From a virus (lineage: Duplodnaviria; Heunggongvirae; Uroviricota; Caudoviricetes), in IMG/VR virus record IMGVR_UViG_2778261564_000010: 4,241 nt of DNA, one strand, 5' to 3'. The position numbers and the translations under genes were made by a program. Below the pieces are notes generated by a model that was not told the origin of the DNA, ran no database searches, and saw nothing but the letters and a program-made list of their open reading frames with translations. The stretch's first letter is position 1; every line of letters begins with the position of its first letter. Shown here in pieces: positions 1,141 through 4,241 of this stretch.

Positions 1141-1173
1141 GCCAGGAAAAAACAAAACCCGCCGAAGCGGGTT
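1141..1173 (-). terminator. Rho-independent terminator at the 3' end of the hok transcript
   Basis: On the minus strand: 7-bp GC-rich stem (AACCCGC / GCGGGTT) with a UUCG tetraloop, followed directly by TTGTTTTTTCC. Confidence 0.6.
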
Positions 1174-1177
1174 AAGT

Positions 1178-1192
1178 GCGGGTGCGTTGAGG
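1178..1192 (-). promoter_or_regulatory. hok mRNA 3' fold-back element (fbi-like), complementary to the 5' end of the transcript
   Basis: Minus-strand 5'-CCTCAACGCACCCGC-3' is the near-perfect complement (one bulge) of minus-strand 5'-GCGGGTGCTTGAGG-3' at 1568-1555. This long-range 5'/3' pairing is the known hallmark of hok mRNAs. Confidence 0.5.
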
Positions 1193-1241
1193 ATGCCTGA
1201 CTCATCAGAGGTGGCGAGGGATTTCCCCCTCGCCTGGTCTC

Positions 1242-1397
1242 TTACTCCTCAGGTTCGTAAGCTGTGAAGACAGCGACCTCCGTCTGGCCGGTTCGGATTC
1301 GTACCTCGCAGAGGTCTTTCCTCGTTACCAGTGCCGTCACTATGACGGTTAAACAGATGACGATCAGGGCGATTAACATCGCCTTTTGCTGCTTCAT
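1242..1397 (-). CDS. hok: Hok/Gef-family type I toxin (HokD/RelF-like), 51 aa
   Basis: Hand translation: MKQQKAMLIALIVICLTVIVTALVTRKDLCEVRIRTGQTEVAVFTAYEPEE, ATG 1397 to TAA 1242-1244. SD AAGGAG lies 8 nt upstream. The protein matches my memory of E. coli HokD (RelF) and has the hydrophobic N-terminal helix and conserved Cys of the family. It is absent from the ORF track only because it is shorter than the track cutoff. Confidence 0.9.
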   Translation of the reverse strand: MKQQKAMLIALIVICLTVIVTALVTRKDLCEVRIRTGQTEVAVFTAYEPEE

Positions 1398-1453
1398 AGC
1401 CTGCTTCTCCTTGACCTTTCGGTCCGTAAGAGGCTAATCTCTATGTGTCGCAT
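1394..1453 (-). CDS. mok: mok-like leader ORF (19 codons), translationally coupled to hok
   Basis: ATG at 1453-1451 preceded by GAGG at the spacing seen in the plasmid R1 mok region. The frame ends in TGA overlapping the hok ATG as ATGA. Inferred by analogy with the R1 hok/mok/sok architecture; the ORF is much shorter than R1 mok. Confidence 0.4.
   Translation of the reverse strand: MRHIEISLLRTERSRRSRL
1411..1440 (+). promoter_or_regulatory. Candidate sok promoter
   Basis: Plus strand TTGACC (1411-1416), 17-18 nt spacer, then CTAATC/TAATCT (1434-1440). The -35 overlaps the complement of the hok SD, as in R1 (TTGCGC-N17-TATCCT, from memory). Confidence 0.45.
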
Positions 1454-1520
1454 AGATATGGCCTCAGATTAATGTTAAGCGTCTTGCAGGACGCGTAATG
1501 TTAACTGGGGCTTTTCTCTA
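1447..1520 (+). ncRNA. sok: Sok-like antisense RNA (approximate ends)
   Basis: Lies opposite the mok translation-initiation region. The 3' part contains a nested hairpin (GTTAA-GCGTC ... GACGC-...-TTAAC) followed by GGGGCTTTTCTCT, similar to what I recall of the R1 Sok 3' end. Boundaries are inferred, not measured. Confidence 0.4.
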
Positions 1521-1554
1521 TCTGCCTTTTGGTGTTCATGCCTGAGACAGATAG

Positions 1555-1601
1555 CCTCAAGCACCCGCAGTCATTCTACTTAACTAAGATTTCCCCGCAA
1601 A
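1555..1601 (-). promoter_or_regulatory. Candidate hok promoter and 5' tac-like element
   Basis: Minus strand TTGCGG (-35, plus 1596-1601), 16 nt spacer, TAGAAT (-10, plus 1574-1579), then GCGGGTGCTTGAGGCT (plus 1555-1568). The latter resembles the R1 hok mRNA 5' end GGCGCUUGAGGCU and is complementary to the 3' element at 1178-1192. Confidence 0.45.
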
Positions 1602-3734: not shown

Positions 3735-3740
3735 TTCTTA

Positions 3741-3761
3741 CCGCCCTTTCGGGCGGCCTCC
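3741..3761 (-). promoter_or_regulatory. H element copy 1: GGAGG plus GC hairpin with GAAA loop, immediately 5' of a start codon
   Basis: Minus strand GGAGG-CCGCCC-GAAA-GGGCGG, then 6 nt (TAAGAA), then ATG at 3734. The 23-nt core is identical to copy 2 although the flanking genes are unrelated. Confidence 0.6.
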
Positions 3762-3766
3762 CGACA

Positions 3767-3979
3767 TTAATCGTTGTGGTAACTCATGGCTTCATTTGCA
3801 GCATCAACCGGATCAACCTCCCACCAGCAATAATTTGGTGCGTTTCCTTCAGGTGTCCACGGTTCCAATTCATTTTTTGCCACATTCTCGTCGCCAGTAA
3901 TTTTAAAAATCTGCTCAGAGAATTTTTTCACCCACTCGTTATATTTTTCAGTGTTAATAATTTTCTGTGTATTTGACAT
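3767..3979 (-). CDS. Small acidic protein (70 aa), unknown function
   Basis: Track ORF with ATG start preceded by GGAGGT at about 7 nt. Translation: MSNTQKIINTEKYNEWVKKFSEQIFKITGDENVAKNELEPWTPEGNAPNYCWWEVDPVDAANEAMSYHND. Lies immediately downstream of the P element. Confidence 0.65.
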   Translation of the reverse strand: MSNTQKIINTEKYNEWVKKFSEQIFKITGDENVAKNELEPWTPEGNAPNYCWWEVDPVDAANEAMSYHND

Positions 3980-3986
3980 AGATATA

Positions 3987-4048
3987 CCTCCAGTTAAGGA
4001 TTAAATTTTATTTACAGTGCTGAACTTAATTATTCAGATTTGGATTAT
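3987..4048 (-). promoter_or_regulatory. P element: AT-rich promoter/operator-like element upstream of the 70-aa gene
   Basis: Second copy of the roughly 60-bp conserved element (see 2725-2781). Ends in the GGAGG used as SD for the ATG at 3979. Contains TGTAAATAAAAT, a possible -10-like sequence. No transcription start can be called confidently. Confidence 0.4.
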
Positions 4049-4050
4049 GC

Positions 4051-4164
4051 TTTCTCTTCACGAAGTTCCGATTGTTAATTTGGCTCACAACAGCACCTTC
4101 TGAAAATTACCCTGATAGAAAGCCAGTACACGCTGCATAGCTTCGCTCTTCCGGCACTCGCTAC
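4051..4164 (-). other. Degenerate partial third copy of the cassette, truncated by the IS
   Basis: Minus-strand ...TAATTTTCAGAAGGTGCTGTTGTGAGCCAAATTAACAATCGG... aligns with the 3180-3215 region (...AAATTTTCAGGAGGCGGTACTGTGAGTGAAATTAGCTATCAGG...) but with frame-disrupting differences, and then joins directly to sequence resembling the last codons of the 118-aa gene. No intact ORF. Confidence 0.4.
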
Positions 4165-4241
4165 TGAACCGCCCCGGGAATCCTGGAGACTAAACTCCCT
4201 GAGAAAGAGGTAAACAGGATGACTAAAAATACACGTTTTTC
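4165..4241 (+). mobile_element. IS3-family insertion sequence, left end (IS629/IS1203-like), continues beyond window
   Basis: TGAACCGCCCCGGGAATCCTGGAGACTAAACTCCCTGAGAAAGAGGTAAACAGG followed by ATGACTAAAAATACACGTTTTTC matches my memory of the IS629/IS1203 left terminal repeat and orfA start. Unverified recall. Confidence 0.7.
4219..4241 (+). CDS. IS3-family transposase OrfA, first 7 codons only
   Basis: ATG at 4219 preceded by GAGG; translation MTKNTRF... Partial at the window edge. Confidence 0.65.

Follow-up and report, generated by a model that had tools for sequence, protein, structure and literature searches.

A complete and probably functional hok/mok/sok type I toxin-antitoxin module of the hokD type in the nin region of a lambdoid Escherichia coli prophage

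Our analysis concerns a hok locus carried by a 4,241-nucleotide stretch of viral DNA (Caudoviricetes; IMG/VR record IMGVR_UViG_2778261564_000010), the whole of which is referred to here as the window. The toxin gene is a small ORF of the length (about 50 residues) and hydrophobic character seen in the Hok/Gef toxins, and its product matches both the Pfam family PF01848 (Hok/Gef; E = 1.2e-23, 82.9 bits against a cut-off of 22) and PHROG 251, 'MokW-like host killing' (E = 2.8e-33). The sequence-only reading had named the protein HokD (RelF); all of its residues agree with the K-12 HokD (100% identity), and the coding DNA is identical too. HokD is toxic upon expression (2026 Hok preprint). The gene is embedded in the following set of observed and predicted elements, given in the direction of hok transcription.

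1573 to 1601, minus strand: candidate hok promoter, with -10 TAGAAT (1578-1573) and a weak -35, either TTGCGG (1600-1595) or TTTGCG (1601-1596).
1146 to 1566, minus strand: predicted full-length hok mRNA of about 420 nt, with its 3' end within the T-run after the terminator.
1555 to 1568, minus strand: tac (translational activator), the 5' element GCGGGUGCUUGAGG, pairing with fbi or ucb.
1538 to 1564, minus strand: predicted metastable 5' hairpin of 11 bp, in which tac is paired with the adjoining downstream sequence.
1505 to 1511, minus strand: ucb (upstream complementary box, the anti-SD of mok), GCCCCAG, assigned from folds and covariation.
1447 to 1516, plus strand: predicted Sok antisense RNA of about 70 nt, comprising a 5' tail antisense to the mok start region, then a long hairpin and finally CUUUUC.
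1394 to 1465, minus strand: mok translation unit, with the SD GAGG (1465-1462), ATG (1453-1451), 19 codons (MRHIEISLLRTERSRRSRL) and TGA (1396-1394).
1430 to 1434, minus strand: dcb (downstream complementary box), GCCUC, the predicted partner of the mok SD region once the mRNA is truncated.
1411 to 1440, plus strand: candidate sok promoter, with -35 TTGACC (1411-1416), an 18-nt spacer and -10 TAATCT (1435-1440), below the scanner threshold.
1242 to 1412, minus strand: hok translation unit, with the SD AAGGAG (1412-1407) and an ORF of 51 amino acids plus stop (1397-1242).
1213 to 1234, minus strand: 3' UTR hairpin GGCGAGGGGGAAAUCCCUCGCC of the minimum-energy fold, conserved with covariation across 37 loci (columns 363-370 with 382-389).
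1178 to 1192, minus strand: fbi (fold-back inhibition element), CCUCAACGCACCCGC, pairing with tac.
1146 to 1173, minus strand: intrinsic terminator of the hok mRNA, a stem-loop (1173-1156, AACCCGC-UUCG-GCGGGUU) followed by the T-run UUGUUUUUU.

The conserved, structured leader that characterizes hok mRNAs is present upstream of the toxin gene. The Rfam model RF01794 matches the minus strand at 1566-1395 over its full length (model positions 1-157; 106.7 bits against a gathering score of 59, E = 2.1e-24), a match comprising 172 nt 5' of the hok ATG. This family bears the name 'sok' and runs in the orientation of the hok mRNA leader. Other Rfam matches (isrK, at 26 bits against 50, and three snoRNA families) were sub-threshold and were taken as noise or as a generic hairpin-plus-terminator resemblance. 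Judging from the start of the RF01794 model and from homology to the R1 +1 site (GGCGCUUGAGG), the 5' end of the hok mRNA probably lies near 1566. About 35 related loci have a counterpart of the upstream -10 hexamer (TAGAAT, TATAAT, TACAAT, TAAGAT or TATATT), equally far from the conserved 5' end. A sigma-70 consensus scan of positions 1050-1750 on both strands called no site, the hok and sok promoters both falling below its threshold, and the assignment of the two promoters thus rests on homology and conserved position and not on consensus strength. The hok terminator is the sole terminator-like site within 1050-1750. The earlier description of the locus as a self-contained hokD-type hok/mok/sok unit, complete from a candidate hok promoter to a terminator, is supported by this inventory, since every element that it listed was recovered in the place assigned to it or no more than a few bases away, the hok promoter as a sub-threshold candidate.

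The two ends of the predicted hok mRNA are complementary. The segments GCGGGTGCTTGAGG (1568-1555) and CCTCAACGCACCCGC (1192-1178) form 14 bp with one bulged C, and this tac/fbi pairing is the closing helix of both the minimum-energy and the centroid structures computed for a 424-nt transcript (1568-1145). The fold of this transcript, at -177.7 kcal/mol (z = -9.42), was equalled by none of 100 shuffles; the tac/fbi duplex itself, at -26.9 kcal/mol, was equalled by none of 2000 dinucleotide shuffles of the 3' UTR. Across the whole window the best partner of tac is fbi, its own antisense aside. The 5'/3' complementarity that the sequence-only reading had pointed out between these two segments is therefore upheld by fold closure and shuffling, as well as by the covariation described below, and the leader, whose failure to pair on folding had been named as a sign of a decayed locus, retains its pairing capacity.

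Folding of partial transcripts points to the alternative structures known from the hok family. The first 31 nt alone give the metastable 5' hairpin (11 bp, -16.5 kcal/mol, z = -4.5), which would block co-transcriptional activation and which agrees with the metastable 5' structure described for R1 hok (PMC9841398). In the full-length fold the mok SD GAGG is buried in a helix between ucb (1511-1505) and CUGAGGC (1467-1461). Once the 3' end is left off (folds of 1568-1195 and 1568-1193), the tac segment GGGUGCUU pairs instead with AAGCCCC of ucb, and GAGGC (1465-1461) pairs with GCCUC (1434-1430). The predicted folds thus reproduce a switch to tac/ucb and mok SD/dcb pairing after 3' truncation.

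Comparison with related loci indicates that these helices are maintained across considerable sequence change. We aligned 37 full-length hok mRNAs, drawn from the window, phage 933W, Escherichia species, Kluyvera, Citrobacter, Pseudocitrobacter, Photorhabdus, Pantoea and an R1-type plasmid; a K-12-like locus without fbi at the usual place (L015) was excluded. The 5' 12-mer of tac finds a partner 30-85 nt past the hok stop codon in every locus of this alignment, and wherever a related locus has a clean fbi match the distance from the stop to fbi is 44-55 nt. When the search for fbi with RNAduplex was run without a position limit, alternative G+C-rich partners were chosen in several hokC-type loci; with the search limited to 30-85 nt past the stop, the conserved fbi was recovered in all loci except L015. 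Compensated tac/fbi pairs among the related loci (5':3') include GGGUGC:GCACCC and GGGCGC:GCGCCC, and likewise GAGG:CCUC, GAGA:UCUC and GAAG:CUUC. Decayed relatives were also observed, for example L005, with tac deleted, and K-12 hokD itself.

The RNAalifold consensus of the 37 loci contains 66 pairs, 20 of which show compensatory double changes. Covariation is seen in tac/fbi as well as in the internal helices among Escherichia, Kluyvera, Citrobacter, Photorhabdus, Pantoea and the R1-type plasmid. Within the tac/fbi closure one position is U-A in 23 loci and C-G in 12, and three positions of the ucb/mok SD helix show A-U in 25 and G-C in 12, G-C in 22 and A-U in 14, and U-A in 32 and C-G in 3. 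Double changes are also seen in a long-range helix that joins CUCUUAC, 5' of the hok SD, with GUAAGAG at the hok stop. From the MAFFT alignment RNAalifold recovered 6 of the approximately 12-14 tac/fbi pairs, as the position of the bulge shifts between clades, and the duplexes computed locus by locus are fuller.

On the opposite strand, an antisense Sok RNA is predicted from promoter-like hexamers (sub-threshold), a strand-specific hairpin and homology to sokW. The -35 hexamer overlaps the complement of the hok SD by 2 nt, and the promoter region is positionally homologous to the sokW promoter of 933W and Sp5 (TTGCCT ... TAACCT); the divergent sok promoter overlapping the hok SD that had been proposed is thus present as a pair of hexamers and stands as a candidate by homology and position. 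The predicted Sok region of the window aligns to the annotated 71-nt sokW of 933W. Its interval folds to -31.7 kcal/mol (z = -5.8) on the plus strand and to -18.5 kcal/mol on the minus strand, the plus-strand fold being the steadier because several of the pairs are G-U, and such an asymmetry is what would be expected if the plus-strand RNA were under selection.

The leader ORF claimed to end in an ATGA overlap with hok was confirmed as a mok frame of 19 codons (1453-1394), with GAGG 8 nt 5' of its ATG and its TGA overlapping the hok ATG. A stop codon that overlaps the next start codon is a classic arrangement for translational coupling. The window mok has its own SD, overlaps hok and is predicted to be coupled to it, in a form unlike that of R1, in which mok has about 70 codons. 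The position of its start is homologous to that of mokW in 933W and of mok in R1-type plasmids. Relative to 933W, 2 nt are absent just after the mok ATG and one additional T is found in the GACC-GAAA-GGUC hairpin, and together these changes place the window mok in the third possible frame.

Other hokD-type loci put this variant in perspective. An in-frame mok, which yields an N-terminally extended Hok of 68-70 amino acids, is found in 64 of 80 viral loci, whereas the 19-codon ATGA form occurs in 11 of the 80 and also in hokC of E. ruysiae and E. whittamii; the mok of Rac 442/2 has 68 codons and an out-of-frame +2 overlap. All three mok frames are therefore in use among near-identical hokD-type loci, which suggests that what counts is the act of translating the leader, the Mok peptide itself being of no importance. 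The short mok is a minority variant without demonstrable defect, and it is the only mild variation of this locus.

The arrangement in the window differs sharply from the one for which hokD is best known. In the Qin prophage of MG1655, hokD follows relB and relE on the same strand, and our alignment bears out the earlier description of it as the third gene of relBEF, lacking a leader and sok of its own. Homology between the two loci begins 16 nt 5' of the hok ATG and continues through fbi and the terminator with essentially complete identity, so that the Hok protein, the coding DNA and the 3' UTR, including fbi and the terminator, are shared, as is the general position in a lambdoid prophage adjoining a DUF968 (ydfU-like) gene. 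Upstream of this point relE ends 71 nt 5' of the hok ATG in K-12, and the hok promoter, tac, ucb, mok and sok, all of which the window has, are missing. A relBEF operon arrangement was considered for the window and rejected: the hok leader, and not relE, lies upstream. In agreement with the earlier statement that relBE-like genes are lacking there, a tblastn search of the window for RelB and RelE homologues found none (best E = 1.4), and the flanking ORFs gave no match to the Pfam RelE and RelB families.

We then consider which of the two arrangements is the normal one. Among 80 viral (IMG/VR) contigs with an identical HokD, 76 carry tac and a full leader and 2 carry the relE junction, and the self-contained locus is accordingly the rule and the K-12 arrangement the exception. 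The proposal that the window holds an ancestral or alternative intact module is upheld as to the ancestral, or normal, form; it does not hold as to a rare or new alternative. By these sequence comparisons the textbook relBEF arrangement of K-12 appears as a derived, truncated state of a common, self-contained locus.

The locus is widespread. About half of the complete E. coli genomes, 2784 of 5426, cover at least 80% of a 551-nt region containing it, and matching places in E. coli number 12,537. Identity is complete in at least 5 genomes, those of CFSAN061770 and EC31 among them, and reaches 99% or more in 454 records; 79 phage records carry the locus. In a wider survey, 44,248 Hok homologues have been catalogued and found to be enriched in prophages (2026 preprint). 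In strain CFSAN061770 the locus sits inside a lambdoid prophage, flanked on one side by small nin-region ORFs that follow the replication and cI/cro-like genes and on the other by DUF968, RusA, a DUF1133 Q-like gene and lysis genes. An element of the IS3 family is inserted in the source prophage, about 2.6 kb upstream of the hok promoter, and this prophage may be defective and no longer inducible. RefSeq records of the exact sequence annotate only hokD, together with a probably spurious antisense ORF; mok and hok are both annotated in a Rac-type phage record.

Taken together, these data lead us to conclude, with a probability of about 0.9, that the locus is a complete and probably functional hok/mok/sok type I toxin-antitoxin module (hokD allele), an accessory gene of the nin region of a Qin/Rac-like lambdoid E. 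coli prophage. Homology allows the control mechanism to be proposed with high confidence, on the model of R1 and of the folds computed here, and it is from these that we infer transcription, processing, coupling and toxicity for the window copy. A weak promoter (-10 TAGAAT, 1578-1573) would make the hok mRNA of about 420 nt, in which the local hairpin would hold the 5' tac during transcription; once transcription was complete, tac would pair with the 3' fbi and ucb would sequester the mok Shine-Dalgarno sequence, leaving a full-length RNA that is untranslatable and also a poor target for Sok. Slow 3' trimming would then remove fbi, freeing tac to pair with ucb and uncovering the mok start region. 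While the sok promoter fires, the short-lived Sok (approximately 1447-1516, plus strand) would pair with the mok start region, block translation and trigger cleavage of the duplex. Should transcription of sok stop, the 19-codon mok would be translated, with termination on the hok AUG (AUGA) opening the hok start site, and Hok would be made and inserted into the inner membrane. Possible triggers are prophage induction, loss of the element and the shut-off of host transcription by an infecting phage.

The physiological role is the least certain part of this interpretation. We propose that help with lysis and phage release after induction is the most likely role, by analogy with hokW-sokW of the Stx2 phages, whose DNA is 91% identical. 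Upon RecA-dependent induction of Sp5, sokW RNA vanishes and HokW builds up in the inner membrane; hokW-sokW was found to hasten lysis and to double the release of phage, and without the locus growth arrest comes about 40 min later and phage release falls to half (PMC8621323). A difference in location speaks against a transfer of the lysis role, hokW lying near the right end of its phage genome and the window copy in the nin region. If the source prophage is defective, as the IS3-family insertion may indicate, a role in assisting lysis would be moot.

Retention of the prophage, by killing of the cells that lose it, or abortive infection against other phages, as the sequence-only reading had suggested, is a genuine contender for this role, although we do not think it the probable one. 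It is encouraged by R1 hok/sok, which stabilizes plasmids and lowers the plating of T4 (cited in PMC8621323), and by the 933W annotation, which labels hokW 'prophage maintenance'; the only experiment on a close relative nevertheless shows the opposite sign, in that hokW-sokW helps the phage (PMC8621323), and hok genes are not enriched beside defence systems (2026 preprint). Nothing in the sequence discriminates between the candidate roles.

A more specific proposal is that the short ATGA mok represents a distinct mode of coupling, by termination and reinitiation, with an altered Hok output, and that read-through in the nin region makes Hok an early helper of lysis. The 19-codon mok differs from the 70-codon majority, so that the efficiency of coupling could differ, and the window copy is co-oriented with the flanking early-region ORFs, so that read-through after induction could override Sok. 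We regard this combination as speculative and somewhat unlikely.

We consider it improbable that the locus is a structurally complete but silent, decaying relic, in which the 2-nt change in mok or weak promoters would prevent the synthesis of Hok. The mok frame is not that of the majority and neither promoter was called by the consensus scan, the host prophage carries an IS insertion, truly decayed relatives exist (L005 and K-12), and the chromosomal hokA, hokB and hokC gave no post-segregational killing in earlier work summarized in the Hok preprint. Against this, all of the regulatory elements are intact and in register with those of functional relatives, the stop/start overlap is of the established coupling type, and the toxin is identical to HokD, for which toxicity is on record; moreover, the recurrence of the 19-codon ATGA mok in viral loci and, independently, in hokC of two Escherichia species argues for its being tolerated. 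That the window holds a plain hokD gene with unrelated flanks, its 5'/3' complementarity a chance match, is scarcely credible: short G+C-rich complements can occur randomly, the single point in its favour, but no shuffle reached the observed duplex energy, and the compensatory changes at several positions in distant genera refute it.

Returning to the preferred reading of a complete module, the locus matters little as a discovery, and its practical value lies in annotation, as the RefSeq records omit mok, sok and the RNA elements. Besides K-12 hokD, three known systems provide the measure of it. The chromosomal hokC (gef)/mokC/sokC loci belong to the same family and have the same elements, and those of E. 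ruysiae and E. whittamii share the 19-codon ATGA mok; they differ in a Hok that is approximately 80% identical, in a shorter ucb hairpin and in their chromosomal, non-prophage site, and those of K-12-like strains (L015) have no fbi where it normally lies.

Plasmid R1 hok/mok/sok (parB), the paradigm, shares with the window its architecture, both of its alternative folds and a metastable 5' hairpin, and its Sok is antisense over the mok start, as predicted for the window. The R1 elements, as summarized in PMC9841398, are the tac/fbi and ucb/mok SD pairings, the switch to tac/ucb and mok SD/dcb after 3' trimming and the metastable hairpin; the comparison with R1 that the sequence-only reading had advised finds all of them reproduced in the window. 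The R1 Hok is only about 44% identical (a figure given for HokW; PMC8621323), its mok has about 70 codons in the +2 frame as against 19, and its carrier is a plasmid and not a prophage. The Sok/ucb hairpin of the window has a 16-nt insertion relative to the Rfam consensus.

The closest known system is hokW/mokW/sokW of the Stx2 phages 933W and Sp5 (VT2-Sakai), with 90.9% DNA identity over 94% of the locus, the same order of promoter, tac, ucb, mok SD and start, sok promoter, hok, 3' hairpin and fbi, and a lambdoid carrier in both cases. HokW and the window Hok are identical at 47 of 51 residues, and the two Sok hairpins are one loop base apart. The 933W record (AF125520) annotates mokW, hokW and a 71-nt 'SokW antisense RNA' at homologous positions. 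Differences are seen in mokW, which has 70 codons in frame with hokW where the window mok has 19 and ends on the hok ATG; in the terminator, the sequence of which is not the same in 933W; and in the 5' tails of Sok, which differ at several positions and make full cross-regulation between sokW and the window Sok unlikely. For hokW-sokW the expected behaviour has been shown experimentally: the toxin mRNA is stable, the antitoxin RNA is unstable and killing follows when transcription stops (PMC8621323), a mutation in the -10 of Sp5 sokW abolishes antitoxin activity and unmasks toxicity (Takada et al. 2021, PMC8621323), and RNase III and Hfq contribute to antitoxin activity (PMC8621323). Earlier work has thus documented the module, its RNA folds and its occurrence in lambdoid prophages, a 91%-identical copy has been characterized by experiment, and the locus in the window is a common and ordinary member of a known family.

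The RefSeq annotation around the hok/mok/sok locus lacks both mok, the leader ORF, and sok, the antisense RNA gene, although it calls a gene on the strand opposite hok. Features in or next to the locus:

1021-1200, + strand (opposite hok): 59-aa 'hypothetical protein' WP_001112736.1, from the RefSeq annotation
1254-1259, - strand: UACGAA, the hok Tyr47 codon and the codon that follows it (columns 308-313 of A3, our alignment of 37 hok loci)
1656-1874, - strand: putative 72-aa hydrophobic ORF directly upstream of the hok promoter

The ORF of WP_001112736.1 overlaps the hok terminator and fbi, the 3' element that pairs with tac at the 5' end of the hok mRNA, and this gene call is probably spurious. 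For the putative 72-aa ORF, searches of Pfam and PHROG gave no match, and the homologous stretch in E. coli CFSAN061770, a strain with a 100%-identical locus, carries no annotation in RefSeq. The 3' UTR of hok also gives a sub-threshold Rfam match to isrK, a Salmonella prophage sRNA (1152-1233, - strand; 26 bits, gathering score 50); this match spans the 3' UTR hairpin, fbi and the terminator, and probably reflects only the generic likeness of one hairpin-plus-terminator to another.

The tetranucleotide UACG is the motif for A-to-I editing by TadA, and UACGAA at Tyr47 is unchanged in all 37 aligned hok loci, those of the R1 type included. A 2026 preprint cataloguing Hok homologues describes hokD as recoded from Tyr to Cys at the Tyr47 position, as hokB is.

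Further features lie in the nin region and at the right end of the window:

2675-2782 and 3739-4049: two copies of an intergenic cassette, between small nin-region ORFs
4164-4241: left end of an insertion sequence of the IS3 family (IS629-like)

The cassette copies are spaced about 1.1-1.3 kb apart and share the order G+C-rich hairpin TACCGCCCTTTCGGGCGGCCTCC, then AGGATTAAATTTT, then AATTATTCAG, with the hairpin 96% identical between them; they may be terminators, or module boundaries serving mosaic recombination. The transposase ORF of the IS3-family element begins within the window (ATG at 4219), and matches to other genomes with the same prophage region end at 4164/4167; a DUF977 gene adjoins the same IS junction in strain 28RC1. 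It follows that an IS has inserted into the source prophage, which may be defective as a result.

A truly decayed hokD locus is provided by E. coli ECMA0423 (1280-1503), in contrast to that of the window: its HokD is identical, but a small leader deletion has removed the tac element, and mok is in a different frame. K-12 is not alone in having the relB-relE-hok fusion, which also occurs in Kluyvera sp. CHPC 1.2972 (locus L027, 900-1650; compare loci L006 and L048). There relBE is 97-99% identical to that of K-12 and joins hok at the same point, within the hok SD, whereas the hok is a different one, 70% identical to HokD and resembling the type found in Citrobacter youngae. The fusion is either ancient or has had its hok part swapped, which gives a hint that selection, and not accident, may lie behind the relBEF arrangement.
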